DNA from: Bacillota bacterium | GTDB lineage: Bacteria > Bacillota > JAAYKD01 | Reading direction: 5' to 3' | DNA length: 64,000 bases | Assembly (NCBI GenBank): GCA_963666425.2 | Contig: OY762825.2 | Location: forward strand, 832,001-896,000 | Shown here: in pieces, positions 12,077-26,561 of the stretch | Layout of the letters: every line of letters starts with the position of its first letter | How positions within the stretch are numbered: position 1 is the first letter of the stretch | Position numbers and translations under genes: made by a program | The notes under the pieces: generated by a model | Seen by the model: the letters and a program-made list of their open reading frames with translations, nothing else | Told to the model about the DNA's origin: nothing | Database searches by the model: none

Positions 12077-13171
12077 CTAGCTATACACTTTATTCCTGTA
12101 TTCGTTGATTGTCATGCCAGTTGATTTTTTAAAAAGCTTTTTAAAATATTCATCATCCTTATAACCAAGTCTTTCTGAAATTTCGATATATTTTATGCCG
12201 CTTAAAATTAGCACCTTTGCACGTTCTATTTTTACATCAGTTATGTATTTAACAAGATTCATACCCGTTTTTTCTTTAAAAATCTGACTTATATATGTTC
12301 TTGTGATGAAAAGCCTAGACGATATTTCATTGACTGTGATATCATTATCGATATTTTCCAATATCGTTTTACAAACCATTCTGACCATGCTGCTATTATC
12401 AATACCTAGCTCATATTGACGAATTATTGAAAGAATTGTATCGACTTTGCTCACGAAGGCTTCTTTCATCAGCGAAATATCATCAAGCATTGAAAAGTCG
12501 CTCACTTTAAGTTCCTGAATATTATAAAACTTGTCTATCCACGAGAACTCAGTATAAATCGACTCAATTAGTTTCTTAGTCGATCGGTTGAGAGCAAGGG
12601 CCGTTTTGATAACATCAAAATTGATTTCCGAGTAAGTGCGGTCAACTAAATATGAAGCTGCCTCCGAGGCTTCCTGGTTGCCTTCACTAACTAAGCGCAG
12701 AACATTATCCATTTCTTCCTTAGGAAAAAATTCCTCGGAGTTTTCATGGAGTATTTTATCAAGGTAAGTGATTTTTGATACTTCAAGGCGCCGCTCACCG
12801 ATATATTTTTCGGCACGCAGAAGAGTTTTCAAAAGCTCTTCTGCGTTGACGGGTTTAAGCAAATATTCAAAAGCACCATTGGATAAGCCCTGTCGTGCGT
12901 ACTCAAAGTCACTGAATTGACTCATTAATATAACACATAGAGCGAGCTTATCTTCTGTGACTTTTTTAAGTAGCTCTAGTCCGTTTACAAGTGGCATACG
13001 TATATCCGTCAAAAGAAGGTCAACCGGGTTTTGATGTAGCTTTTGAAGAGCCTCTCGTCCGTTTGTAGCCTCTTCGACGATGACAAAGCCTGATGTCGCT
13101 CCCCATACCTTCATTGATCTGATTTCATTCCGGTAAACTTCGTAATCATCGACAATCATTGCATTGTACAT
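12077..13171 (-). CDS. Response regulator, REC plus AraC HTH (YesN-like)
   Basis: IVDD, LLTDIRMP and YLLKP receiver motifs; C-terminal YISQIFKEKTG...LGYKDDEYFKKLFKK. Confidence 0.92.
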   Translation of the reverse strand: MYNAMIVDDYEVYRNEIRSMKVWGATSGFVIVEEATNGREALQKLHQNPVDLLLTDIRMPLVNGLELLKKVTEDKLALCVILMSQFSDFEYARQGLSNGAFEYLLKPVNAEELLKTLLRAEKYIGERRLEVSKITYLDKILHENSEEFFPKEEMDNVLRLVSEGNQEASEAASYLVDRTYSEINFDVIKTALALNRSTKKLIESIYTEFSWIDKFYNIQELKVSDFSMLDDISLMKEAFVSKVDTILSIIRQYELGIDNSSMVRMVCKTILENIDNDITVNEISSRLFITRTYISQIFKEKTGMNLVKYITDVKIERAKVLILSGIKYIEISERLGYKDDEYFKKLFKKSTGMTINEYRNKVYS

Positions 13172-16100
13172 TCAGTTTACCTCGTCAGAAGCAACCGGTA
13201 TCGTGAAATATACGGTTGTTCCGGCATTTGGCCTTCCGCTTATCCATGTCCGGCCGTTATGTTTTGCAATAATATTCCTGACTGCAGCTAAGCCAATGCC
13301 TTGACCTTCATATTCGTCAGTATTGTGAAGTCTTTCGAACGCACTAAAAAGCTTGCCTGCATATTCCATATCGATGCCTATACCATTATCTTTAATGCTG
13401 ATAACATACTCATTATTTTCCCTGCTACACCCAACAATAATTTTTGAAATTTCTCGATTAGTCGAAAACTTTAGCGCATTGGAAATGAGATTTGTTATGA
13501 CGTGATGAATCAAGGTTTTATCGGCAAAAATTTTGGGGATTCCGGTCTGAAAATCAAGAACTGAATTCACATACTTTTGTTTTTCATAAACGTCAATGAT
13601 CATTTTCTTAAGATCAATTGTTTCTTTTCTCAGCTCGATTCCAGTGAGCCTTTCATACTCCAACAGCTCTGAAATCATCTTGTTCATACCAGCACATAAA
13701 TCGATTATTTTCGCTGAATTCGTTGCAATATCAATATTTTCTTGGATCTGTTTGGAATACTTATTTATTTCCTGTAGCGGCATTTTAAGGTCATGGGTCA
13801 CAGTTAGTGAGAAGTTTTGAAGGGTTTTTATTGATTGATGTAACTCTTCGGTTCGTTCATTAACACGGGTTTCAAGAGAGGTGTTCAGTTTTATTATCTC
13901 TTGCTCAGCATTGATGCGTTCTGTGATATCTCTGCCAAACATCGTAATCTCTATCAGCTGAGAATCGATATAGACAGGATGGAATGAATAGGAAAAAACC
14001 CTATTATCCCGCGATATGCGGATGTCAACATGAAGTTCTCCTTCGGTTTTCACACGATCAAGCAACTCTATAAAGATGGAGAAAGTTTCTTCTGGAAAAG
14101 CTTCTTCGAGACTTAAGCCGGATTTAATTTCCATGCCATAAAATCCGCTGATAAAATCATTAACTGATTTATTCCAAAGAATTATTTTATAATCAGGATC
14201 AACTGACCATATAAAATCATCTGTACTGTTGATGATGTTTATAAGCTCCATTGTCCCTTTTTTAATTTCATTCTCAGCTTTAATCATTTCGGTAACATCA
14301 CGATTTGTTTCAAGAACTGTGTTAAGCCCCAGTTCATTGATTATGATCTGCTGTCGTGACTCTATGCAAAGCAATCGACCATCCTTTGTAGTATGGTCGA
14401 CAAGACCCTTCCATGAGCCATGTTCCAATAAAAGCGAACTGAGTTCCTTAAAATCAATCGGGTATCGAGAATTGAGTAATTTGTAAGGTAAACAACCAAC
14501 AGCAGCATCATCTTTATAGCCATAAATGTTTTCAGCGCCTTGATTCCAATAGATAATCGGACCATCCATGTAATATGCAAATATCGCTTCATTAGATAGA
14601 TCCAAAAGCTTTGCCTGCCGGTTTAGTATTTTATTCTGCTGTTGAAGCTGAACAATATGGTCTTCAATAGCATGTTGGGTTTTCATAAGCTCCGTGATAT
14701 CGTGATAAGATACAACTAATGCCATAAGTTTATTTTGGTCATCGAAGATAGGTATAGCTGTAACTTCAACGATTCTGCTCCATTTGCCGCGTTCAATAAT
14801 GATTCGTTCATTGCGGACTGACTCGCCCCTGAAAGCACGCCGTGTCGGGAAATCATCAAACGACTTAACATTTCGTTCGAGGTCAAGACAGCGATATCCC
14901 TCAAAAATACTGTGTACTGATGTTTGGCTGGTTATATGATCCGGAAACATTGACCGGGCTTGAACGTTTACAGATGTTATATTGCCGTCACAATCATATA
15001 CCAAAAGAGCATCATGCATATTTTCAATGATAGCATACTGAAGCTTGTTTTGATATCGAATTTCTGCTTCCATTTTATTGCGTTGCGTGATATCTCGACA
15101 TAATTCAAGCACGATTTTATTACCATCTTCATCGATGTACATTTGCTTTGCTGTTTCAATACAGAGCAGTCTGCCATCTTTTGTTGTATGTATGATTTCC
15201 CCGATCCATTTTTCGTTATTTTCCAACAGGTACAGTGTTTCCTCCATGCCGATGGGACGTGTTGTCTGAAGAAGCACATCGTTTAATTGACCGATTGCTT
15301 CTTCAGCCAGATACCCGTACATGAGCTCGGCGCCTTTGTTCCAGTAAAAAATAGTACCATTCAAGTCCCAAGCAAAAATCGCTTCATGGGAAAGGTTCAG
15401 AAGCCTTGACTGCCTGTTTAAAATTTTATATTGTTGATTAAGCAACCCTAAATGCTCTTTGATGGTTAAGCCATCAGCGATTGTTTGATGAGATAAAGAA
15501 CTGTTCTGTTCAAATAGCAGAAGCTCGGTCTGCTTTATTTCTCTGAAAATCAGGTCGTATGGTTCTCGAATACCCGTTTGGACGATAGCTTTGTAAATAA
15601 AGAAAAAAGAGAATATTTTAAAATAATGCCCAAACAAATTTGTTAATCCGTAATTATTGATATATGTTGTAAAACAAGCCTCTGATGCTATCGTAAGAAG
15701 GATGGATAAAAGTAAGAATTTATAGACTTTACTTTCGAATGAATCTTTATTTTTATGTAGTACAAAAATTGTAGCTAAAAGAATTGTAATAATGATATAT
15801 TCACTGATAATTTTGAACTGAGTTTGTCCTACTCCGTCAATAAACGCGATGGGAAAATTATGCCATACAAAAACAGAAAGAAGAATTAACGTAGTGAAAA
15901 TAGTATAAACGGTAAATAAAAGATAAATATTCACTTTTTTAGTCGACTTTATAAGTATGAAGGAAAATAAAAGTATAATACTTTCAAAATATCTGGCTGC
16001 AATCCATAATTGGTTCGCGTGATAACTAGAATCCAGAAAAATTGTCATACCCTCATATGCTGCAGTATGGAATAAATCCAGGCAACCAATAAATAAATAC

Positions 16101-16303
16101 GCGAATCCTATCATTAATAAATAGTTATTTTTTAAAACGCTTGCCGAATTCCACGTTATAATAAAAACAGTAATGGCAATACATATGCTGAAAACTTCTG
16201 CAAACATATGGAACAAAAGATAATTGTAAAGACTACTATAATATAATAGAATTAATATGGCAACAGCAATAATAATACTACTACTTTTCTTAATATAACT
16301 CAT
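13172..16303 (-). CDS. Sensor histidine kinase: MASE3 membrane domain, about four PAS domains, HisKA/HATPase
   Basis: YNYLLFHMFAE...QLWIAARYFES (MASE3-like); PAS YWNKGAE/YWNQGAE; HDLKMPL, NLISNALKF, DNGIG, GQGIGL; AGGAGAAGG RBS supports a start at 16303 rather than 16483. Confidence 0.9.
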   Translation of the reverse strand: MSYIKKSSSIIIAVAILILLYYSSLYNYLLFHMFAEVFSICIAITVFIITWNSASVLKNNYLLMIGFAYLFIGCLDLFHTAAYEGMTIFLDSSYHANQLWIAARYFESIILLFSFILIKSTKKVNIYLLFTVYTIFTTLILLSVFVWHNFPIAFIDGVGQTQFKIISEYIIITILLATIFVLHKNKDSFESKVYKFLLLSILLTIASEACFTTYINNYGLTNLFGHYFKIFSFFFIYKAIVQTGIREPYDLIFREIKQTELLLFEQNSSLSHQTIADGLTIKEHLGLLNQQYKILNRQSRLLNLSHEAIFAWDLNGTIFYWNKGAELMYGYLAEEAIGQLNDVLLQTTRPIGMEETLYLLENNEKWIGEIIHTTKDGRLLCIETAKQMYIDEDGNKIVLELCRDITQRNKMEAEIRYQNKLQYAIIENMHDALLVYDCDGNITSVNVQARSMFPDHITSQTSVHSIFEGYRCLDLERNVKSFDDFPTRRAFRGESVRNERIIIERGKWSRIVEVTAIPIFDDQNKLMALVVSYHDITELMKTQHAIEDHIVQLQQQNKILNRQAKLLDLSNEAIFAYYMDGPIIYWNQGAENIYGYKDDAAVGCLPYKLLNSRYPIDFKELSSLLLEHGSWKGLVDHTTKDGRLLCIESRQQIIINELGLNTVLETNRDVTEMIKAENEIKKGTMELINIINSTDDFIWSVDPDYKIILWNKSVNDFISGFYGMEIKSGLSLEEAFPEETFSIFIELLDRVKTEGELHVDIRISRDNRVFSYSFHPVYIDSQLIEITMFGRDITERINAEQEIIKLNTSLETRVNERTEELHQSIKTLQNFSLTVTHDLKMPLQEINKYSKQIQENIDIATNSAKIIDLCAGMNKMISELLEYERLTGIELRKETIDLKKMIIDVYEKQKYVNSVLDFQTGIPKIFADKTLIHHVITNLISNALKFSTNREISKIIVGCSRENNEYVISIKDNGIGIDMEYAGKLFSAFERLHNTDEYEGQGIGLAAVRNIIAKHNGRTWISGRPNAGTTVYFTIPVASDEVN

Positions 16304-16440
16304 ATCTACCTTCTCCTGTTCATCTGATAAACCGAATATTCTGGCCACTCCCATGCTTGTTCGCACAGAAGTTTTTGAGTAATCCGGAGTAAAATTCCTA
16401 CGGGGGTGCGGATGTTTTCTTGCACCTTTTTGCCCGGAAT

Positions 16441-16633
16441 CTACTCCACAATATCGCTGAAGTCGGTATTCAGTACTCGACATATTCTTTCGACCGTTGT
16501 GAGCGTAATGGGCTCATCCCGACACATCTTTGTGAGTGTCTGTGGACACTTCTCTACAGCCTTGCGAAGATCGGACTTAGTCATCTTTTCTATCAATCAG
16601 GAGCTTCTATAGTCTGTTATATGAAATAGCCTT
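16441..16633 (-). pseudogene. Cro/CI-type small HTH regulator pseudogene
   Basis: Manual translation (K)AISYNRL*KLLIDRK / MTKSDLRKAV...TKM..DEPITLTTVERICRVLNTDFSDIVE*: lost start, in-frame TAG where Trp is expected, and one frameshift. Confidence 0.75.
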
Positions 16634-17001
16634 ATGGTTACTTCCCATATAATCAGATATTTTATTATACTACAAATTATCTGTATTTTCAACGTAACTT
16701 CACACATTTATGCGAATGCCTAACCCCTCATTCGTATGAGGATGATATGTTATAAAGGCTCGGTTTGCAAGACACACAAAAAGTATTTCTTAATGAACCA
16801 TATAATGGTAAATCATAACCTTGTTTGCTCGTGATTATTTATAGTCTCAATTGCGTAGCCGCCGGTAGGATAACCTTGAGGCTGCTACAGTGTAAATGAT
16901 ACAATAATTTAAGCGGGCAAGAGAAACCATCCATCATAACCCCGTCTCGCCCGCAAGAAAGCCGAAACATTTACACTGGCAGGGTCAAGGTCGGCGGTGG
17001 A

Positions 17002-17898
17002 TCAGGCGCTCTTTTTCAATAGGACTGGCTGGTAAACTTTTGCAGGAGCTTGGTAGTCCAAGGCGGAGTGCAAGCGCTCGTAATTGTAGGTATAGATAAA
17101 AGCAGCTATTTGTTGCCTGGCTTCTTTTATGTTGAGATACTCTTTCAGATAAACCTCTTCATACTTCAGCGTGCGGAACCAACGTTCTATTAAAATATTG
17201 TCTGCCCAGCGGCCTTTACCATCCATGCTGATCTGAATCTGGTTGGCTTTTAGAAAGTCGGTGTAATCATGACTGGTAAATTGGCTGCCTTGATCCGAGT
17301 TCAATACCTTCGGTTTCCCCATGGCCAGGGCTTTCTCTACTGCACGTAAAACCATTGGTGTTGCTAAGGTATCATCTAGTTCCCAGCCCACAATACAACG
17401 ACTGTGCCAGTCAATGATTGCAGTCAAGTAAATAAAGCCATGCTTCAAGCGTATATAGGTGATATCAATAGACCAAGCTTGATTGATTCGATTTATCTGC
17501 GCGTTTTTCAGTAAATAGGGGTAAATTTCGTGACCCTTTACGGGTTTTGAGAGATCCGGCTTGGGGTAAATCACTCGAATTCCTATTTCTTCCATGTAGC
17601 GTCTGGTTTTGAGCCGGCCAACCAGTAAGTTACGATCTTTTAATTGTTTGGATAGCTGACGGGAACCCCATGTTGGATTCTTGGTATGGATCTCATCGAT
17701 GATCCGTTTCGCTTGCAGTTCTATTTCGCTTGGTCTGGCAGATATCCAATAGATTGAGGTCCGATTGACCTCAAGCAACTGGGCCATTGTCTGGATCGTC
17801 AGGTTCCCTTTTCCAGACTCAGCTTTTTGGGCGCGGAGTAAATTGACTTTCCCATTCAGGTCCAAGCAGCTGTTCAGATTTTTTTTTGAGCCAGTCAA
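17002..17898 (-). CDS. IS3 transposase OrfB (DDE integrase core)
   Basis: WSIDITYI, NSDQGSQF, DNILIERWFRTLKYE. Confidence 0.92.
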   Translation of the reverse strand: MTGSKKNLNSCLDLNGKVNLLRAQKAESGKGNLTIQTMAQLLEVNRTSIYWISARPSEIELQAKRIIDEIHTKNPTWGSRQLSKQLKDRNLLVGRLKTRRYMEEIGIRVIYPKPDLSKPVKGHEIYPYLLKNAQINRINQAWSIDITYIRLKHGFIYLTAIIDWHSRCIVGWELDDTLATPMVLRAVEKALAMGKPKVLNSDQGSQFTSHDYTDFLKANQIQISMDGKGRWADNILIERWFRTLKYEEVYLKEYLNIKEARQQIAAFIYTYNYERLHSALDYQAPAKVYQPVLLKKSA

Positions 17899-18157
17899 CC
17901 TGTGTGGTTAGCTGACCGATCTTCTTGTATAGCTCTTCTGTCTCCTGATGCTTGCTTTGTAATTCGCATCTAAGTTCTTCGGTCCGTTTATCTTCAAATG
18001 CAGCCGTTGCGTTTTTTAGAAACTCTGCTTTCCAATTGCGTATTTGGTTCGGGGCGAGCTCGTTTTCAGTGGCGATGATATTCAGTTCTTTTTCACCACG
18101 GAGCACTTCCAAGATGATCTTTGTCTTATACTCGGCACTAAAGGTTCTTCTCTTCAT
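17819..18157 (-). CDS. IS3 transposase OrfA (HTH)
   Basis: RRTFSAEYKTKIILEVL...QIRNWK...IGQLTTQVDWLKKK. Confidence 0.92.
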   Translation of the reverse strand: MKRRTFSAEYKTKIILEVLRGEKELNIIATENELAPNQIRNWKAEFLKNATAAFEDKRTEELRCELQSKHQETEELYKKIGQLTTQVDWLKKKSEQLLGPEWESQFTPRPKS

Positions 18158-18567
18158 CTCTTCGACCTGCTTTCTTTCTTTGTATTCATTATAGCAGGTT
18201 CATCATCTTCATGCTCTCTTTTTGTCGAGTTTTCCTAGACCATTATACTTGATGATACGTTGAGCTTTGTGTTTAGGAATGGTAGTGAGGTAATTAGCTG
18301 AATACAGTTTGGTTTACCCGAATCGGATTTTGTGCATTTACAAAATTCGTATCAATATCATAAAACATATCATTATCATTATTTGAATCAAATTGTCTTT
18401 TTACGAGGTTGGCCAAATTGCGATTTGTGCTATATATCACAAATCCTTATTAATTCAATTGTGAAAGTAGAATAAAAACGTTAAAAAGGAAAACAAATCC
18501 TTGAATATTCGGAAATTTCACATGTGTATAATATGAATTTAATTGCACAATGTAGAAAAAATTAATA

Positions 18568-18596
18568 TTGACTATTTAGATTAAATTATGTATAAT
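18568..18596 (+). promoter_or_regulatory. Near-consensus sigma-A promoter of the RiPP locus
   Basis: TTGACT, 17 bp, TATAAT. Confidence 0.75.
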
Positions 18597-18609
18597 TTTA
18601 CCGAATTTA

Positions 18610-18784
18610 TGGGAAATATTACAATATGAGCGGACTGGAACTTTTCTATCAAGCATTTGCTTGGTATTGCAAATGCCTTTCTGGTGCTTAACATTTTAAT
18701 CTCTCTGTGTTTGGCATGAGCAAGGCGGTCGAAGTTTCGTTTATCCGCTCGGAAGGTTAATTCAATAATTCCCTAAGTTTTTTT
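18610..18784 (+). ncRNA. Candidate structured leader or sRNA
   Basis: Nested pairings GGGAAATATT/AATAATTCCC, GAGCGGA/TCCGCTC, GGAACTT/AAGTTTC, GCATTTGC/GCAAATGC, followed by a T7 run. Confidence 0.4.
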
Positions 18785-18851
18785 GTTAGTCTGAATTTTT
18801 TTCGCGGATTAAAACAAGGGAAAATATGCATAGTTATGACTAAAAAGAGGG

Positions 18852-20558
18852 TTGATTAAGTTGAACAGGATATTACAAAACAGTATATTCATGTTAAATT
18901 ACATAAAGAAGCACTGCAGAAAATTCATGATTATAGCTTTTTCCCTGGCACTGGTTTCAAGTATTGTTTCTATTGTATCGATCATTTTCATAAGAGTAGC
19001 ATTAAATGATGTGATTTCGAATAAATCAATGCGGACGCTAATTATTATCCTTATTGCGAATTTTTCCGTTTCACTCCTCGCGGCACACCTCACATCGGTT
19101 AGTAATAACATCGTTATTCCCATAGCAACTCAGAAATTCCAAGCCAATATGCATAGAGAATTGTATGAGAAAGCAGCAGAAATTGATTTGATTAAGTATG
19201 ATGACCCTATATTCTATAATAAATATATAATGGCACTAAATAATTCTGATTCAAGAGCGTTGTCTGTGTTAAGCACATATACCTCATTATTGACCGCTGT
19301 TATTAATAGTATAGGTATGATTGCATTTATATTATCAATTAATCAAGTTATTATCTTCCTTATTGTTGTTTTGAACGTGTTAATTTCGACGTATTGCAGT
19401 TCAATCTCATCTACTATTTCACATAAATTTAATCTATCTCTAGTTGCCATTCAAAGAAAAACTGCTTATGTGAAAAGAGTTTTTTATTTAAATAATTATG
19501 CATGCGATATACGAACTACTAAAATTACAGAGGTTCTTTTTCGCATTTTGAACGACACTATGCGGTCAACACGTGAATTGACTGAAAAATGGGGATGGAA
19601 AAACTACAGAATCACATTATTTCAACATGTGATACAAGCAATAACTACTTTACTAACAATGCTTTATCTTTCAAAATTATATATCTCTGGCTTTATGCCT
19701 GCTGGCGATTTTGCCGCCGTTTTGAGCAGTGTTAATTTACTTGTCTCTTCACTCAAGAATCTCTTTGCGTCGATTCCTCAGCTTTATGAACATAGCTTAT
19801 ATATCGAGAATTTCAAAGAGTTTTTCCTATACAAGCCCACATATGATTCGATAGAATGCAAAGAAATAGAAGCGATCAAAGTAATAAAGATTGATAACTG
19901 CTCATTTGAGTATGAAGAAGGTAAGTGTATTTTAGAGAATATAAATTTGGAAGTAAACATTAGAGAAAAATTAGGGATAATTGGTCCAAATGGAGTAGGT
20001 AAAACGACATTCATTAAGTTAATTACGGGTCTTTATAAGCCGATAAGCGGGAATATTTTTTTGAATGACATTAATTATTCAAAACTGTCTAAAAATGTTT
20101 TTCTGCAAAATTTCTCGGTGTTTTTTCAAAATTTTGAAATCTATGCTACTAGTATTGCAGAGAATGTTCTAATGAAACCCATTGAGAACTTTGAAACGGA
20201 ATCACTTCTTGTTGAAGATGCATTAAAAAATGTAGGCCTATGGGAAAAAATTAATAAATTTGAAAACGGTATTTTAACCCCCATGCTAAAAGAGTTTGAT
20301 GAAGCAGCCGGTGCTTTTTCAACAGGGGAGTATCAGAGGATTGCACTTGCTCGGATTTTTGTAAAAAAATGCGCATTCGTTATTCTAGATGAACCCTTCA
20401 GCCATATAGATAAGAATTCGGTGGAACTAATTTTGAACAACTTAATTAAGAGAAATCCGGAATGCGGTATTGTAATGGTGACTCATGACAAAGCAAACTT
20501 GATCTCATTTGATAAAGTGTACGACCTTGAAACTAAGACATTAAATTCTTTAATATAA
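18852..20558 (+). CDS. ABC exporter, fused TMD and NBD, with no C39 peptidase domain
   Basis: TM-rich N-half; Walker A GPNGVGKT; signature FSTGEYQRIALAR; Walker B VILDEP; H-loop VTHD. Confidence 0.9.
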   Translation: MIKLNRILQNSIFMLNYIKKHCRKFMIIAFSLALVSSIVSIVSIIFIRVALNDVISNKSMRTLIIILIANFSVSLLAAHLTSVSNNIVIPIATQKFQANMHRELYEKAAEIDLIKYDDPIFYNKYIMALNNSDSRALSVLSTYTSLLTAVINSIGMIAFILSINQVIIFLIVVLNVLISTYCSSISSTISHKFNLSLVAIQRKTAYVKRVFYLNNYACDIRTTKITEVLFRILNDTMRSTRELTEKWGWKNYRITLFQHVIQAITTLLTMLYLSKLYISGFMPAGDFAAVLSSVNLLVSSLKNLFASIPQLYEHSLYIENFKEFFLYKPTYDSIECKEIEAIKVIKIDNCSFEYEEGKCILENINLEVNIREKLGIIGPNGVGKTTFIKLITGLYKPISGNIFLNDINYSKLSKNVFLQNFSVFFQNFEIYATSIAENVLMKPIENFETESLLVEDALKNVGLWEKINKFENGILTPMLKEFDEAAGAFSTGEYQRIALARIFVKKCAFVILDEPFSHIDKNSVELILNNLIKRNPECGIVMVTHDKANLISFDKVYDLETKTLNSLI

Positions 20559-20772
20559 CAGGGTAATTAAGATTTCCCGTTGTACAATTACTTATTAGTG
20601 AGGAGCCTTTAGATTTTCCGGTGTAGCGCACCTATAGAATTTTTGAACCTAACTATTCCTCAATCACAACCGATGTTCATAGCTGTTCGACGACTTGCAG
20701 AGAATTTACTCTTCTAGGAAATTGTTTCTTGAAACAGTATTTTCATATAAAAAATCCAAAAGGAGGAGAAAA

Positions 20773-22068
20773 ATGAAGTTCAGTAATTATCTCACCATGT
20801 TTGAAACCTCGCAGTGCATGATTCTATATAGCACTTTAAGGAGGTGCGCAATTAAGATTTATGATATAGATATTAAAGAGGTTATTCGAAGTTTAAAAAC
20901 TGGAGAAACGATTGACGAATCTTACTTGACAAAGTATTCAGACTTCTTTGAAGATCTAAAAGAGAATAATTTCATAATGGAAGATATTTGCGACGAATCC
21001 GAACTGGTCAATTACTTATATCAAACCTCAGTATCAAAAGATGCATCATTGGAATTGATATTGATTCCTACTCGACAATGCAATTTTCGATGCCCTTATT
21101 GTTATGAAGAGCATGAAGCTAAGGTAATGAGTGAAGAAGTTTATTCTAATATATTGAGTTTCATTAAGAAGTATCTTGAATATAGATCAATAAAAAAAAT
21201 AAGGATTTCTTGGTTTGGAGGGGAGCCGCTGCTTGAACACAAAAAAATCATTGATTTTATGAAAACTTTGAAATCTTTAGTCGAGGACAATTGTTGCATT
21301 GAAGGCAGCATGACAACTAATGGCTATTTGCTCAACGAGGTTCTATTCAATGATCTTGTTTCATGTAATGTTAAAAGTTATCAAATAACGGTTGATGGTT
21401 TAAAGGAGTTCCATAATAAGACAAGATATCTATTAGGCGGACATGGGACTTGGGATAAAATCATGAAAAATCTTTTAAAAGCAAAAAAGACACCTCATGA
21501 TTTTAGAATATTGATTAGGACTAACTATACAGAGGAGTCATTATCGAAATATTTGGAATGGTTAAACATTCTAAAGGAGAGTTTTGGTGATGATAAAAGG
21601 TTTGCATTTTATTGTGAGACGGTAAAAAACCTTGGGGGAAACAACACAGAGTATGCTTATAATAATAAGAAACCTAATCCAATTGGTTATGTACTATCAG
21701 ACATGAAAAACTTAAATTTAAATTCATCGGGTTATGAATATCTGACTAACAACTTTGGTTATATTTGTTATGCTAGTCGGCAAAATTCTTTTGTAATTGA
21801 TTATGATGGAGCTCTAAAGAAATGTACAATTTTACTAGATAATGACAAAAATATTGTTGGAAATATAAGCAATCAGATGGATAATATTGATTTCAAAAAA
21901 ATGGCTTGGTGGACGAGTTATAATCATAAAGAAGCATGTCGATCGTGTTATATATATCCTATTTGTTATGGAAAGAAATGCCCGGCTTCCTATTTTTCCG
22001 AAGATTCATGTAGGTTGTTTAAAGAATATCAGCTTGGGGTCATCAGAAGTGTTGTACAAGAAATGTAA
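20773..22068 (+). CDS. Radical SAM/SPASM peptide maturase with a probable N-terminal RRE
   Basis: CNFRCPYC; WFGGEPLL; TTNGY; QITVDG; SPASM CYAS...DGALKKC...CRSCYIYPICYGKKCP...C; AGGAGG RBS before ATG 20773. Confidence 0.92.
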   Translation: MKFSNYLTMFETSQCMILYSTLRRCAIKIYDIDIKEVIRSLKTGETIDESYLTKYSDFFEDLKENNFIMEDICDESELVNYLYQTSVSKDASLELILIPTRQCNFRCPYCYEEHEAKVMSEEVYSNILSFIKKYLEYRSIKKIRISWFGGEPLLEHKKIIDFMKTLKSLVEDNCCIEGSMTTNGYLLNEVLFNDLVSCNVKSYQITVDGLKEFHNKTRYLLGGHGTWDKIMKNLLKAKKTPHDFRILIRTNYTEESLSKYLEWLNILKESFGDDKRFAFYCETVKNLGGNNTEYAYNNKKPNPIGYVLSDMKNLNLNSSGYEYLTNNFGYICYASRQNSFVIDYDGALKKCTILLDNDKNIVGNISNQMDNIDFKKMAWWTSYNHKEACRSCYIYPICYGKKCPASYFSEDSCRLFKEYQLGVIRSVVQEM

Positions 22069-22100
22069 GTGATTCTGAGGGTTTTTTGTATGACATACTG

Positions 22101-22428
22101 AGCTTCACGAGGCATACATGCAATACCTTAATTAACGAAAGGAGTTTTTTAATTTGAAATCATATGAAATAGTGAATTTGAATAAAAAATATGATATAGC
22201 TCCCCTGTTTTTAGATGTATGTTCCGATGTTTGCCCCAACATGGGGGGGTGTACCGATGTTTGTCCAGATATCGGTTGTGCAACAAACACAGGGTGTAAT
22301 GTGGATACTAGTTGCAACCCGAATGCAGGTTGCGGTGGTGGTTCTGATATGGGTTGTGGTGCTAATAAAATAGTAAGATAAACAGTCTCAAGAATATAGA
22401 TTAGTTGCATGTATGCCTCTGTGGAGTT
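22101..22428 (+). repeat. Inverted repeat pair flanking the precursor ORF
   Basis: GAGGCATACATGCAA (22109-22123) / TTGCATGTATGCCTC (22405-22419), perfect over 15 bp and extendable by 8 pairs with two G:U. Confidence 0.9.
22154..22381 (+). CDS. Cys-rich RiPP precursor peptide (75 aa, 9 Cys)
   Basis: AAAGGAG RBS and TTG start; Cys-free leader of ~20 aa; core with repeated DVC and [D/N]xxC motifs; directly downstream of the rSAM/SPASM gene. Confidence 0.8.
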   Translation: MKSYEIVNLNKKYDIAPLFLDVCSDVCPNMGGCTDVCPDIGCATNTGCNVDTSCNPNAGCGGGSDMGCGANKIVR

Positions 22429-22559
22429 AATTAATTAACGAGGGGTTAAGAGTTATCCTATTGGGAAACTCTCAAAATTCGGAGATTTATATAGACTGAA
22501 AGGTATCTGGTACAGCCCTAATGATTTGCTGAACATTATTATTAATGGGGGGTAATAGT

Positions 22560-23789
22560 ATGAAAAAAGTAATGATAGTAATCATATTAATAGTTGCGGC
22601 ACTAACATTCGATATATATAAACCGTATCTATATCAAAAGCTGAATTACAATAAACTAATAACACTTGATAAGCCATCGGCGCACTCCGATATTGATTAT
22701 CTATGGTATCATTTAGAAGATGAGTATCCATATTTAAACACTGCTTTTGAAAACAAAGGTAAAGTGGATTATCACAGTTACTTAAATGACGGAATAACAG
22801 ATGCTTCCGATTTTTCGTTCAATACATATACGCAATACTTACTTAAAATCCCTAATGATCTCAGATATAGAGGTGATTTTACTCTTGTCTTTCCAAAACT
22901 GTACTATTATTTTCATGAGAACTGGACAAGAGCAAAATACGCTTCAAAACAAATACAGAATAACTACAATGAGTTGATTAAGAATGTTTCTTGTGACACA
23001 TATAATATTTTAAAACAATCAGAGGTGAGTCAATTAGATTATGGTGTACCATCTGACAGTATGAAAAGTTTCACTACTGAGGAGATTAGTGCAGATATTG
23101 CTTACTTGAAAATTGAGAATGGATCAAGTACCCGAATAGATAAAGATCGAGAAGCGTTAACGGACTTCTTTAAGTCCATTCATGGAAAAGATTACCTGAT
23201 AATAGATCTTCCCGAATCAAACATTTATTCGTCAGAATATTTTATAGAGAATATTATTTCACCTAACCTTCCTGTCGATTACAGTTTCAGCAGCTATGCT
23301 TTATACACAGAGGATGGTTATAAAAAAAGGGAGGCTGAAGATGCATTTGTGGGTATGCAAACGGGTTCGGTCGATGAAATAGCCGAATTGACAAATCAGA
23401 TTAATGTAGATGATTTAGCGCGTCTAAAATACTATACGAAATCCAATCATTTTATAGAAGCTATAAACGATAAACCTTTGTTTAATGGAGAGATTATTCT
23501 ATTGACAGATGCCTATATTTATGGTGTAGGTGAATATCTGACAATGATCGCAGAAAAAAGTGGCTTTTCCACCTTGGTTGGTAAACCAACACATGGTAAA
23601 GGTGTTATTGGTGATATGGATATCAGTGTACTTTCTCTTCCGAAAAGCGGTATAGTTTTTACTTATCAATTAAAATACGACTTATGGGAAGATGGATCAA
23701 CTTTAGTAACCCCCATTTCACCGGATTTTCTTGCATTGGATCAAGAATCACCACTTGAAGCAAGTATGAGATATATAAAAGAGAAGTAG
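22560..23789 (+). CDS. Membrane-anchored S41 (tail-specific) peptidase-like protein with a degenerate active site
   Basis: N-terminal TM; IAYLKI, LIIDL, F.GEIILLTD, TLVGKPTHG motifs, but YGVGE where xSAxE is expected. Confidence 0.7.
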   Translation: MKKVMIVIILIVAALTFDIYKPYLYQKLNYNKLITLDKPSAHSDIDYLWYHLEDEYPYLNTAFENKGKVDYHSYLNDGITDASDFSFNTYTQYLLKIPNDLRYRGDFTLVFPKLYYYFHENWTRAKYASKQIQNNYNELIKNVSCDTYNILKQSEVSQLDYGVPSDSMKSFTTEEISADIAYLKIENGSSTRIDKDREALTDFFKSIHGKDYLIIDLPESNIYSSEYFIENIISPNLPVDYSFSSYALYTEDGYKKREAEDAFVGMQTGSVDEIAELTNQINVDDLARLKYYTKSNHFIEAINDKPLFNGEIILLTDAYIYGVGEYLTMIAEKSGFSTLVGKPTHGKGVIGDMDISVLSLPKSGIVFTYQLKYDLWEDGSTLVTPISPDFLALDQESPLEASMRYIKEK

Positions 23790-23815
23790 ACGTTTACAGT
23801 TAATCTGAATCCATT

Positions 23816-24262
23816 TTGCAAAGAATGTTAGCAACATTCGCCAAAGGCGTATCAAAATTTGTTCCTATACTTGGCGGAGTTATCTCTGGCGGTCTCACGC
23901 TGGCAATGTTTAAGATGATGGCACACATGCTCAAGAAGCATCTCTCAACAATGGCTCATATGTCGCCGGAAGAGTTTGCCGAGTACGAAGCCGCTATTGT
24001 CTTTGATGCGAAAGACTCAGACACAGATGGCGAGATTGTTGAAGTAGTGATTGATGAGGTTGCGACAAACTATTGGGTTTGTACTTGTGGTGCGGAGAAC
24101 AAAGGTAAATTCTGCCCTGAGTGTGGCAAAGCAAAGCCCATCGGGATACCGCAATACAAATGTAACAAGTACGATAGGGAACCGGATGATAAGACTCACC
24201 CACCAAAGTTCTGTCCAGAATGTGGCGACCCATTTGATGACGGCGATATAGTATTGGTATAA
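23816..24262 (+). pseudogene. 5'-truncated gene fragment ending in double zinc-ribbon motifs
   Basis: No RBS; WVCTCGAENKGKFCPECG and PPKFCPECGDPFDD; one CxxC decayed (CNKY). Confidence 0.55.
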
Positions 24263-24553
24263 CATAATTAGCAAACATTATAAGCAAACCGGTAGCTCTC
24301 CAATTACTATTAGTTGCCCACTATGTTTATAAACCATAACGAACGTAATACAAACATTCTGAAATAAAAACTCCTCTTCACAAGAAGGGAAATCAGTGAT
24401 GATGAGCTTTTATTTCCAAGCCTTATACCTGTATAACTGTGTCATTCTTAAAGGTGAACCATACATTATCTTTGACTGTTCGTATTTTTGTGTAAAATAT
24501 AAATAGTAATCAAAACAAGAGCAAAGTTTTTTAAATATAGAGGAGCCAGAATT

Positions 24554-25285
24554 TTGAACAATCTTTTTTCACATAGTGCCATAAAAGCTGAGGGCAAAGA
24601 ACACTTGAAGCAACATTTCTCATCGGCAGTTCTGTTTCTATTACTGACCTTAACGGTATCGCTTGTAGCCAGTCGAGTTTTGGGTGTCTTGTTTTCCACC
24701 AGAGGACCGGCTATTGATTGGCAGTCGATGACAACACATCAAATCGTAATCAAAACTAGAGAGCTGATATTCACCACTCATAATTTGCTTCGTATGTTGG
24801 TAGAAAACCTGGTTACAGCGGCAGTAGCGTTAGCTAAGGTCTGCTTTTACCTCAATGTTGCTCGGTCAACGGACAAAATCACCCTTATTAATCCCTTAAT
24901 TTACGGGTTCAAACACTCGTTCAAAGCCTATCTTCTTGATTTTTTAATGGGTATTGTTGTCGGTATTGGCGTTGTCTTGTTGATTATTCCCGGCATTATT
25001 TGGGGAATTCAATACATGTTTGCTTTTCTTGTATTGGCAGATCATCCGGAATATTCGGTCATGCAAGCCTTTCAGCGCAGTGCTGAACTAACCAAGGGTA
25101 AAAAAATGCATCTTTTTAAGTTCATTCTGAGCTTTTTCCCGTGGTTACTATTAGTTGCCGTTACTTTCGGGTTGGCCATTCTTTATGTAGGACCATACTA
25201 TAGCACTTCCGTAGCAGTATATTATAATCGATTAGTCTATGACGCGGAGGGTGTCTTGCCCGAACCCCCTGGTGAAATTCTTTAA
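24554..25285 (+). CDS. DUF975-like integral membrane protein
   Basis: LLIIPGIIW...Y.FAFLVLADHPE...AFQRSAELTKGKKMHLF...PYY; AGAGGAG RBS. Confidence 0.8.
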   Translation: MNNLFSHSAIKAEGKEHLKQHFSSAVLFLLLTLTVSLVASRVLGVLFSTRGPAIDWQSMTTHQIVIKTRELIFTTHNLLRMLVENLVTAAVALAKVCFYLNVARSTDKITLINPLIYGFKHSFKAYLLDFLMGIVVGIGVVLLIIPGIIWGIQYMFAFLVLADHPEYSVMQAFQRSAELTKGKKMHLFKFILSFFPWLLLVAVTFGLAILYVGPYYSTSVAVYYNRLVYDAEGVLPEPPGEIL

Positions 25286-25298
25286 CAGAATAATAAAA

Positions 25299-25972
25299 AG
25301 ACTAACTATTAAAAGTCAATCCCCAAAATGGAAAAAAACTGTGGATAGGCCGCCGCCCTATGACAAGCAGCAGCCAAATGCTGCGGAAAGATCAGCGAGG
25401 GCGACGGAGGCAATAAATTACCAGACCCAGCCCCCTTGAGCTTTCCAGCCTAGCATTTGGCTGCTTCTGCTTGTCAAGGGTTCGCTGCGCCGGCTGAGGT
25501 GTACAAGTTGTCGGCGAAGGCTCAAAAGGCAATTATGCCGCTCTTCGGTAACCTTCACCGGATTTCTGCATTGCGTAGATTAAGCGTACCAATTTCTTGG
25601 CTGCATGAGAAATAGCGACATTGTAGTGCTTCCCTTCGGCTCGTTTCTTTGCCAGATATGCGGCGAAGATTGGATCCCAGATACAGACATACTTTGCGGC
25701 ATTAAACAGAGCAAAACGGAGATATCGGGAACCGCGTTTCTCCATATGCGAATGGCTGTTATCCATCTTGCCGGATTGGTATGTGGATGGAGACAGGCCT
25801 GCAAATGCAAGAATCTTGTCCGGAGAATCGAACTTGGCAAAGTCTCCAATCTCGGCAAGAATCATTGCTCCCATACGAGTACCCATGCCTGGAATGGTAG
25901 TAATTGGAGAATGGAGTGCCTGCATAAGCTCGTCAATCTGAGCTTCAATCTCGTCAATTTCAGAGTCCAGTT
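25299..25972 (-). mobile_element. IS110-family remnant: C-terminal transposase half and non-coding right end
   Basis: TIPGMG...ILAEIGD...F....I.AFAGL.PS.YQSG......KRGSRYLR..LF; RuvC-like N-half missing; outward-facing TTGACT near the terminus. Confidence 0.85.
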
Positions 25973-26049
25973 TGTTTAATGTAAACTAAAAATACCGGAA
26001 AAAATCATCAGGAAGTCCGTTAATTATCATCAAGAATTCCCAGGAAAAA

Positions 26050-26390
26050 TCATGACGAAAAGATGGTTTCCATAAAGATTTGGGATACCAACATTTTTTG
26101 GTTTCCGCCGTAGCAGTATTCCACAACAGGATAAGAGCCGTTCGGGTCAAAATTCGCTGGAAATACTAACATTCCACAAATATCGGTGGTTTTGTCTGAA
26201 CCTTTGACACAAAAAGGAGTGGATGAATATAACCAGCCGCCTTCAAGTGCTCAACATCGGCCTTTACAATGATGCGAATTGCAGTTCTGTCTATTGCATA
26301 AAGCGTGACGATGGGCTCTTGTTTATAGGAAATTAATAAATCTAAACAATATTCGCCATTCTCTGCGAAATAGGTTTCATGATCTCCGGT
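26050..26390 (-). pseudogene. Internal fragment of an S9 (DPP-IV-like) peptidase
   Basis: Manual translation with a frameshift: ...KADVEHLKAAGYIHP / PFCVKGSDKTTDICGMLVFPANFDPNGSYPVVEYCYGGNQ. Confidence 0.65.
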
Positions 26391-26561
26391 TTTATCGCCC
26401 TTGAAGAGTTATATCAACACTTTATTTTCATACTATTATTTTGACTAAAAAGTTTTGAAGATGCTGTCAAACGCTTCTCAACTCTTCTCACCATAAAAGC
26501 TACGCAAATATTCCGCAACTTTTGTACTCCTACGACAAAATTTGTTTTTATAACTTAGATA

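Follow-up and report, generated by a model that had tools for sequence, protein, structure and literature searches.

The locus at positions 18568–23789 of the window, by which we mean the whole 64,000-nucleotide stretch of Bacillota contig OY762825.2 analysed here, encodes a radical S-adenosylmethionine (rSAM) enzyme and, behind it, a conserved, Cys-rich peptide of 75 residues. The enzyme combines an N-terminal recognition element (RRE) for peptides that are made on the ribosome and modified after translation (RiPPs) with a C-terminal SPASM domain. Taken together, the analysis suggests a multi-ring thioether RiPP in which each Cys would be linked to an Asp or Asn upstream of it, similar to the ring of NxxcA, and we put the chances of this reading at about even. 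Its parts carry different weight. It is very probable that the rSAM enzyme and the peptide constitute an enzyme–precursor pair and fairly probable that the modification is a thioether, whereas the assignment of the Asp or Asn upstream of each Cys as the acceptor is tentative, a little short of an even chance. The thioether assignment is drawn from the sequence motif, the architecture of the enzyme and its neighbours; what is observed directly is the gene set, the enzyme architecture, a conserved precursor and an enriched motif.

An earlier note on this DNA, made from the letters alone, had described an AT-rich, single-strand locus running from a promoter through an ATP-binding cassette (ABC) exporter, the rSAM enzyme and the peptide to an S41-like protein, and had taken it for a RiPP-type locus. 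Every element was found in its place within 18568–23789, and an RRE–rSAM/SPASM enzyme does lie beside a conserved Cys-rich precursor. The note had also proposed that homologous precursors be collected; those collected here show the open reading frame (ORF) to be conserved beside rSAM homologues in three other lineages. The elements of the locus are as follows.

18568–18596, + strand: putative sigma-70-type promoter, TTGACT-17-TATAAT (consensus match, 11/12)
18597–18851, + strand: long 5′ leader with predicted structure, preceding the ABC gene (fold compared with shuffles)
18852–20558, + strand: ABC exporter of half-transporter type, comprising membrane and ATPase domains (PF00005, 90.8 bits)
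20773–22068, + strand: RRE–rSAM–SPASM maturase, 431 residues (Cys motifs, AlphaFold2 model, Foldseek)
22101–22124, + strand: upstream arm of a long-range stem that encloses the precursor gene (inverted repeat and fold)
22154–22381, + strand: precursor peptide, 75 residues, TTG start (ribosome-binding site AAAGGAG, homologues beside related rSAMs)
22405–22429, + strand: downstream arm of the long-range stem (inverted repeat and fold)
22545–23789, + strand: S41-like membrane-anchored protein (PF03572, 31.2 bits)

All four ORFs are intact and each is preceded by a ribosome-binding site. Beside the rSAM enzyme, no further tailoring enzyme is encoded in the locus.

The rSAM enzyme and the Cys-rich peptide

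The listed ORF of the rSAM gene spans 20695–22068. Its real start is the ATG at 20773 behind AAAGGAGGAG, giving a protein of 431 residues with the same sequence as database entry P0001. The CxxxCxxC motif (C103/C107/C110) is invariant in an alignment of 42 relatives. Seven Cys belong to the SPASM domain, and C332, C351, C389, C392, C398 and C403 are invariant in the same alignment, with C413 nearly so. The AlphaFold2 model is of high quality (predicted local distance difference test score, pLDDT, 91.3), and residues 7–64 fold as three strands followed by three helices, the pattern of an RRE. The top Foldseek matches are the CteB structures 5wgg and 5why, with TM scores of 0.70–0.73 over 449–467 columns; anSME, ChlB, TigE and SuiB follow, and SkfB is 22nd with a TM score of 0.47. 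A profile search likewise returns CteB with E = 1.8e-23 and SkfB with 32 bits.

Among the best 25 of 60 NCBIfam matches, the enzyme lies below the cut-off of every model: TIGR04463 (183.8 bits, cut-off 525), Clo7bot (TIGR04334; 163.7 bits, cut-off 600), CefB (NF038107; 159.6 bits, cut-off 600), FlmE/OhkG (140 bits, cut-off 500), geopeptide (138 bits, cut-off 400), PapB (NF047865; 111.3 bits, cut-off 340) and the SCIFF maturase (TIGR03974; 68.9 bits, cut-off 425). All six best neighbours carry descriptions as peptide maturases, in several cases with Cys-rich precursors as substrates. Because the enzyme falls below these cut-offs and 0/42 of its relatives reach E ≤ 1e-60 on any NCBIfam model, this group of rSAM enzymes is uncovered by curated models. 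Six ‘catalytic site proximity’ (CSP) positions have been defined by Precord et al. in 2023 (PMC10288494), and we mapped them through a profile alignment to CteB, the sole comparison enzyme. In order from CSP 1 to CSP 6, the residues of the window enzyme and of CteB are Y111 and F112, F148 and F152, T181 and T186, T206 and S210, T352 and H363, and I353 and Q364.

The precursor has a leader of approximately residues 1–20 (MKSYEIVNL...PLFL) and a core that starts at D21 and contains nine Cys, at positions 23, 27, 33, 37, 42, 48, 54, 60 and 68. It matches no Pfam or NCBIfam model at E ≤ 0.01. Judged from its relatives, it is nevertheless a real, conserved gene. A single relative, P0121, was recovered from an index of 5.8 billion proteins; it has 74 residues, is 93% identical and keeps every Cys. 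More distant homologues were found through the enzyme. The rSAMs of loci L004 (an Oscillospiraceae metagenome-assembled genome, or MAG) and L005 and L006 (Clostridia MAGs) are 38–42% identical to that of the window, and each has a Cys-rich ORF directly downstream whose leader can be aligned with the window's. The shared leader pattern in the precursor alignments is M-SYEI/SFSV-L...P, and conservation within the core is highest at the Cys.

This set was extended by tblastn against 72,556 plasmid records. Matches to the rSAM at E ≤ 1e-30 came from 31 records, seven of which are Clostridium tetani plasmids with a 40%-identical enzyme. The one C. tetani record that was opened (L103; NZ_CP115449.1, 24249–35526) has a 77-residue ORF beginning MSKGYEIVTL directly downstream of the rSAM gene, and on the other strand, upstream, are genes for an S41 peptidase and an ABC exporter. 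Neighbouring features are an IS200/IS605 transposase and a C39 peptidase encoded by a gene of its own. The rSAM gene, a downstream precursor, an S41 peptidase and an ABC exporter thus recur in L004, L005 and L103, and L006 shows the rSAM–precursor pair. Since L004, L005 and L103 carry the same set as the window, the four gene types recur in four lineages.

A profile built from four precursors and run against 1.84 billion representative proteins gave eight matches at E ≤ 0.001. Four are relatives: P0121, P0123 (similar to the L004 peptide), P0128 (similar to the L005 peptide) and P0122, which matches the start of the L005 peptide and then diverges as from a frameshift when the two sequences are read side by side. 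The remaining four matches are to longer proteins, also Cys-rich, that match the profile repeatedly. P0126 and P0127 proved unrelated on reading, and P0124 (1208 residues) and P0125 (425 residues) were treated, like them, as unrelated Cys-rich repeat proteins. An ESM Atlas search with the peptide gave a best score of 0.80 (recognition 1707), under the level that counts. A metagenome scan with the rSAM alignment, which used generic motifs and kept 80 of 429 loci, returned within those 80 only distant rSAM relatives (21–39% identity) with other leaders, Cys patterns and precursor types. As far as these comparisons of sequence reach, this is a rare family without a curated model for either enzyme or peptide. 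A literature search, with published RODEO datasets outside its reach, returned no paper on it; the RODEO datasets in the supplements of Hudson 2019 or Precord 2023 may already include the family as an uncharacterised entry.

Two further analyses address the enzyme as a member of this family. A midpoint-rooted FastTree phylogeny was built from 195 rSAMs, comprising the 42 aligned relatives together with the proteins P0046–P0120 and the locus rSAMs of at least 380 residues. The window, L004 and L005 enzymes descend from a common node (support 0.90) whose clade has 30 tips, C. tetani P0013 and Tissierella carlieri P0035 among them, and the precursor type was read for a few of those tips. Prediction of the rSAM–precursor complex gave a median score of 0.54 versus 0.06 for the best of three controls, with at least 52% of contacts shared between runs and a partner pLDDT of at least 36. 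The mark applied to this score was reached by 58/80 solved complexes and by 2/110 mismatched pairs; at scores of 0.60 or below, it was reached by only 7 of the 80 solved complexes plus both passing mismatches. The predicted complex therefore lends weak support to the pairing, and the pass may reflect likeness to known complexes, since solved rSAM–leader complexes exist.

Spacing of Asp/Asn and Cys and the proposed rings

The central observation on the core is the position of acidic and amide residues relative to Cys. Across seven precursors, Asp or Asn occupies the position three residues upstream (−3) of 42/69 Cys, compared with 5–21/69 at the eleven other offsets between −6 and +6. By precursor, the −3 count is 5/9 in the window, 6/9 in P0121, 6/9 in L004, 6/9 in P0123, 9/12 in L005, 7/13 in P0128 and 3/8 in C. 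tetani. Shuffling tests covered the first six of these. The five occurrences in the window core compare with 1.86 expected (p = 0.0125), and the related precursors gave p values from 5e-05 to 0.004. NTGC and NAGC are literal NxxC motifs in the window core, which has DIGC, DTSC and DMGC besides. All nine Cys of the window peptide have an Asp or Asn somewhere between −2 and −4.

Several statements of the earlier note bear on this pattern. The nine Cys positions are as it listed them, the DVC repeat is present in three copies, all five of the DIGC, NTGC, DTSC, NAGC and DMGC units occur, and the Cys from C42 to C60 are spaced by six. Its view that the peptide matches neither SCIFF nor freyrasin is borne out as well, as the SCIFF, PapB, TIGR04463, Clo7bot and CefB models all stay under their cut-offs and Asp or Asn is found at +4 in just 5/69 Cys. 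The rule that an Asp or Asn stands three residues before Cys survives as a feature of the family (42/69), but it is not obligatory, as the 3/8 of C. tetani illustrates. What did not survive is the proposal of a two-register design as a trait of the family: the DVC units, with Asp at −2, are confined to the window and P0121 (where one reads NAC), and the motif elsewhere is [DN]xxC. The alignments place DVGC, NGAC or NVIC in the other lineages where the window has DVC. Because DVC recurs only in P0121, the ‘second register’ is best described as a one-residue contraction specific to the lineage of the window.

Natural variation in this lineage was examined in contigs from four public runs mapped to 20600–23800. 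The peptide gene varies by D25N, V26A, G41S, T44P and an in-frame loss of three nucleotides by which NMGGC becomes NMGC; none of these changes removes a Cys. The five changes together make up the P0121 form; some runs carry only part of them. No synonymous change was seen in the peptide gene in these contigs. The changes listed for the rSAM gene are four non-synonymous and one synonymous, and the gene for the S41-like protein has many, mostly in residues 100–215, where many are non-synonymous. The three-nucleotide loss restores the −3 spacing. Both this and the exchange of Asp for Asn would fit an acceptor role for these residues, although they are no proof of one.

A working model for the locus can be put together from these features. 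The leader of the precursor (SYEIVNL...) would bind the N-terminal RRE of the rSAM/SPASM enzyme, which would then form thioether crosslinks one by one, each between the thiol of a Cys and a carbon in the side chain of the Asp or Asn three residues upstream. For the lineage of the window, the distance between Cys and Asp/Asn would be two residues at three sites and four residues at one. The product would contain as many as nine very small rings in a row, with the topology of NxxcA (Asn20–Cys23) repeated along the core, and the ABC protein would export it. We infer the formation of the crosslinks, their number (up to nine by one enzyme), the acceptor residue and the carbon attacked. The window core has no aromatic residue, and cyclophane chemistry is therefore disfavoured.

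A more far-reaching version of this model appears rather unlikely as a whole. It would define a new poly-[DN]xxC RiPP family, in which a single rSAM enzyme repeats NxxcB-type chemistry six to nine or more times to give a ladder of four-residue β-thioether rings, three of them contracted to three residues (DVC) in the lineage of the window. Mobile DNA, C. tetani plasmids among it, would carry the family from one distant Clostridia-like lineage to another, and the S41 partner in the window would be non-catalytic, with a new role in binding, immunity or chaperoning.

Partner genes, RNA elements and mobile context

The S41-like protein matches PF03572 in part (31.2 bits versus a cut-off of 24) and aligns from end to end, at 28% identity, with the protein annotated as an S41 peptidase in the C. 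tetani locus (E = 5e-32). When the active Ser was sought through the motif after the LTD/LTN strand, it was not present. Gly327 occupies the column in which L004, L005, C. tetani P0133 and PDB entry 4ghn have Ser, and in tricorn protease (1k32) the same profile column holds a Ser, chain residue 939, which we take to be the nucleophile Ser965. The earlier note had not remarked on the missing Ser. The NGG motif is lost as well, the window protein reading ESNIYS where that of C. tetani reads ECNGGS. The only other relative, P0130, is 73% identical, also has Gly and keeps the C-terminal half well. The best PDB match of a four-sequence S41 profile is IRBP, presumably a non-catalytic member of the S41-like fold. 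An AlphaFold2 model from a four-row alignment had a pLDDT of 36.2, too poor for a three-dimensional check of Gly327. On these alignments, the protein is probably not a working serine peptidase and looks like a pseudo-peptidase still under selection. The S41 serine peptidase of the relatives, in turn, probably removes the leader.

The ABC protein has 568 residues and, compared over the full length, shows 27–28% identity to its counterparts in L004 and L005 (E = 8e-65 and 1e-57). Models of bacteriocin and NHLP exporters align with it only from about profile position 150; as these are the peptidase-bearing exporter models, the window protein is without a C39 peptidase domain.

Two putative RNA elements accompany the genes. 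The region 18603–18860 folds at −67.8 kcal/mol (z = −3.19), and 0/200 shuffles fold as well. The 255-nucleotide 5′ leader (18597–18851) is single-copy in the genome and has a hairpin at 18653–18676; it has no Rfam match at E ≤ 1, and an Rfam scan of 16400–26500 gave matches at chance level only, all under their gathering scores. The promoter ahead of it is the top of 40 promoter-like sites in 18200–24600. Shuffled sequences average 31.8 such sites, so only the top score is notable. The second element is a perfect 15-nucleotide inverted repeat, 22109–22123 with 22405–22419, which extends to a stem of approximately 24 pairs enclosing the whole precursor ORF. The fold of 22095–22435 has z = −5.93, with 0/100 shuffles folding as well, and a TTAATTAACGA-purine-rich stretch, read by eye, follows each arm. 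The stem may serve to process or stabilise the precursor mRNA. It appears to be specific to this lineage, because the genes of L004 and L005 lie too close together to accommodate it.

Contigs of run X5 span 22079–23800 and cover almost nothing of 20600–22078. One X5 contig of 58 letters has 28 letters identical to 18723–18750 directly before position 22079, so that 18750 is joined to 22079. A similar loose end is present in run X4 at 22259, where the sequence resembles 18663–18691 by eye only.

The GC content of the locus is 0.30–0.37 versus 0.36–0.46 in the flanking bins (17000–18499 and 23500–25999), and insertion sequences (IS) are found on both sides.

17002–18157, − strand: IS3-family transposase in two overlapping ORFs, upstream flank (rve, HTH_21 and HTH_Tnp_1 domains)
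25533–25925, − strand: IS110-family transposase fragment, 130-residue ORF, further downstream (PF02371, 84.5 bits)

No match to the rSAM at E ≤ 1e-60 was found in nine other genomes of the host's class, one of which, G048, is from the same genus and 97% complete, so the sample of the class has a match in 1/10 genomes, the host genome (G000) itself. At E ≤ 1e-40, a sample of the phylum has matches in 5/401 genomes, and the four besides G000 are just 31–34% identical. The absence of such a match from the other sampled genomes of the class and the scarcity and distance of those in the phylum sample point to horizontal acquisition, and the four-gene RiPP locus was probably acquired in this way. 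Two further samples were searched. The family sample of G401 has matches in 2/401 genomes at E ≤ 1e-60 (G401 itself and G506), and the order sample of G402 in 1/401 (G402 itself). The G506 locus (L102) has an S8-like protease downstream and no [DN]xxC peptide.

Other genes lie nearby. Downstream on the same strand are a 148-residue ORF (23816–24262) with weak zinc-ribbon matches and an N-terminal part that is hydrophobic by eye, and a DUF975 membrane protein (24554–25285). Beyond the IS3 element, on the opposite strand, 12077–16483 holds a large MASE3–PAS histidine kinase and an AraC-type response regulator.

Competing readings and known systems

A number of observations weigh against a thioether peptide in which every Cys is joined to an upstream Asp or Asn. 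The −3 position is filled by L, I, F, G and others in 27/69 Cys, and the C. tetani precursor has Asp or Asn there in just 3/8. The motif counts are not independent, because the seven precursors amount to three close pairs and one single from four lineages. Spacing alone leaves the ring direction unfixed, as every Asp or Asn sits between two Cys. For the enzyme, CSP positions 5 and 6 (T352/I353) are unlike H363/Q364 of CteB, and the score of the PapB model is far from its cut-off. The locus has no evident leader peptidase, since the S41-like protein has Gly for Ser and the ABC protein has no C39 domain. Finally, in the X5 contig the ABC and rSAM genes are missing between the 5′ leader and the precursor region.

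Could the same data describe a different product? A sactipeptide, with Cys thiols joined to α-carbons and with Asp/Asn serving recognition, solubility or turn formation, is in our estimate unlikely. The RRE–rSAM–SPASM architecture is common to sactisynthases, and these are sequence-diverse, GggB and QmpB resembling ranthisynthases over their full length (PMC10288494). The 27/69 Cys that have another residue at −3 would be accommodated, and the ESM Atlas gives weak leads to ‘putative sactipeptide bacteriocin’ clusters (0.76, under the level that counts). However, by structure and by profile the enzyme is nearest to CteB and PapB-like models, not to AlbA or SkfB, and a fixed −3 spacing of a residue with an activated β-carbon mirrors NxxcA exactly. 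Known hairpin sactipeptides put the donor Cys and the acceptors in separate halves, a layout unlike that of the present core. Highly improbable, in our view, is the opposite ring direction, from Cys to an Asp or Asn one or two residues further on (C-x-[DN] or C-xx-[DN]) in the order used by PapB. The +2 and +3 positions hold Asp or Asn in 21/69 and 18/69 Cys, each about half of the 42/69 at −3, and the +4 position of PapB is rare (5/69). The first Cys always has an upstream Asp or Asn, and the NMGGC-to-NMGC variant brings back the −3 spacing. This is set against the Cys of the window from C23 to C54, each of which has an Asp or Asn at +2 (four Cys) or +3 (four Cys), and against the tolerance of PapB, which joins Cys to a downstream Asp, for contracted and expanded spacings (PMC9413430).

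A different rSAM modification, such as epimerisation or another C–H functionalisation, with the Cys forming disulfides or binding metal, is very unlikely. SPASM enzymes do catalyse many reactions, this one belongs to no curated family, and a Cys-rich, Asp-rich core could bind metals; but the six best NCBIfam neighbours are peptide maturases, several for Cys-rich precursors, conservation within the core peaks at the Cys, the locus holds no other tailoring enzyme and the core is without aromatic residues. The possibility that the locus is a decaying remnant without a mature product is compatible with any of the other readings, and we regard it as quite unlikely. Four intact ORFs with ribosome-binding sites, a promoter near consensus, retention of the precursor frame and all its Cys in every variant seen, and conservation of the Gly form of the S41-like protein in P0130 (73% identity, C-terminal half well kept) all speak against decay. 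In its favour are the IS3 element upstream and the IS110 fragment further downstream, the loss of the nucleophile Ser and the NGG motif from the S41-like protein, the many non-synonymous changes at residues 100–215 of that protein in other samples, and the X5 contig that leaves out the ABC and rSAM genes.

For the reading that we prefer, with Cys linked to an upstream Asp or Asn, the nearest counterpart is NxxcA with its enzyme NxxcB. NxxC clusters are streptococcal and Rgg/SHP-regulated, and the window locus shows neither feature. The likeness to the window family lies in an acceptor three residues upstream of the donor Cys, for which the evidence here is the motif, and in an rSAM/SPASM enzyme. 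It is drawn from the motif and the description of NxxcB, which is not among the best 25 of 60 NCBIfam matches. NxxcB joins Cys23 to the β-carbon of Asn20 in NxxcA from Streptococcus orisratti and accepts Asp there (PMC8326336, PMC9389541); the placement of NxxC clusters in streptococci follows the network in PMC9389541. NxxcA has one ring, whereas precursors of the window family have 8–13 Cys and 3–9 [DN]xxC units each.

Repetition of a ring by one enzyme is established for freyrasin of Paenibacillus polymyxa, in which the RRE–rSAM/SPASM enzyme PapB makes six β-thioethers to Asp (PMC9413430). PapB resembles the window enzyme in this architecture, and its model is among the better NCBIfam matches, but the model covers only the enzyme core. 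PapA uses CX3D with the Cys upstream, whereas the window family has mainly Asp or Asn at −3, with +4 occupied in 5/69 Cys overall and in 0/9 in the window. CteB, the enzyme of the SCIFF peptide thermocellin, is the closest solved structure over the whole length of the window enzyme, including the RRE, and the two systems share a clostridial context and a Cys-rich precursor. CteB makes a Cys–Thr γ-thioether (PMC8326336). Unlike a SCIFF system, the window enzyme is below the cut-off of the SCIFF maturase model, and its peptide matches no NCBIfam or Pfam precursor model. TIGR04463, Clo7bot and CefB are rSAM/SPASM maturases of Cys-rich peptides that align over nearly the full length of the window enzyme, RRE included, but with scores far under their cut-offs; the literature search found no paper with the terms Clo7bot, TIGR04463, TIGR04334 or Cys-every-fifth.

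Thousands of uncharacterised rSAM–RiPP clusters exist, and the kind of system described here, an rSAM/SPASM thioether-type RiPP, is known. New are the precursor family, a group of enzymes without a curated model, the repeated NxxC-like design and the S41 partner. As in the ranthipeptide class, an rSAM enzyme with SPASM domain and RRE is encoded beside a Cys-containing precursor. Only a handful of enzymes of that class have been characterised (PapB, CteB, NxxcB, QhpD and, in 2026, CrpC; PMC13692751), and PapB is already in use for peptide stapling (PMC9413430, PMC12373016). If the proposed chemistry is correct, a natural enzyme that makes many adjacent minimal rings to Asp or Asn would widen the known ring topologies, and it would provide both a scaffold of compact size and a means of stapling peptides. 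Natural differences in the expected ring size, DVC versus DxxC and NMGGC versus NMGC, provide a ready-made test of how tolerant such an enzyme would be.

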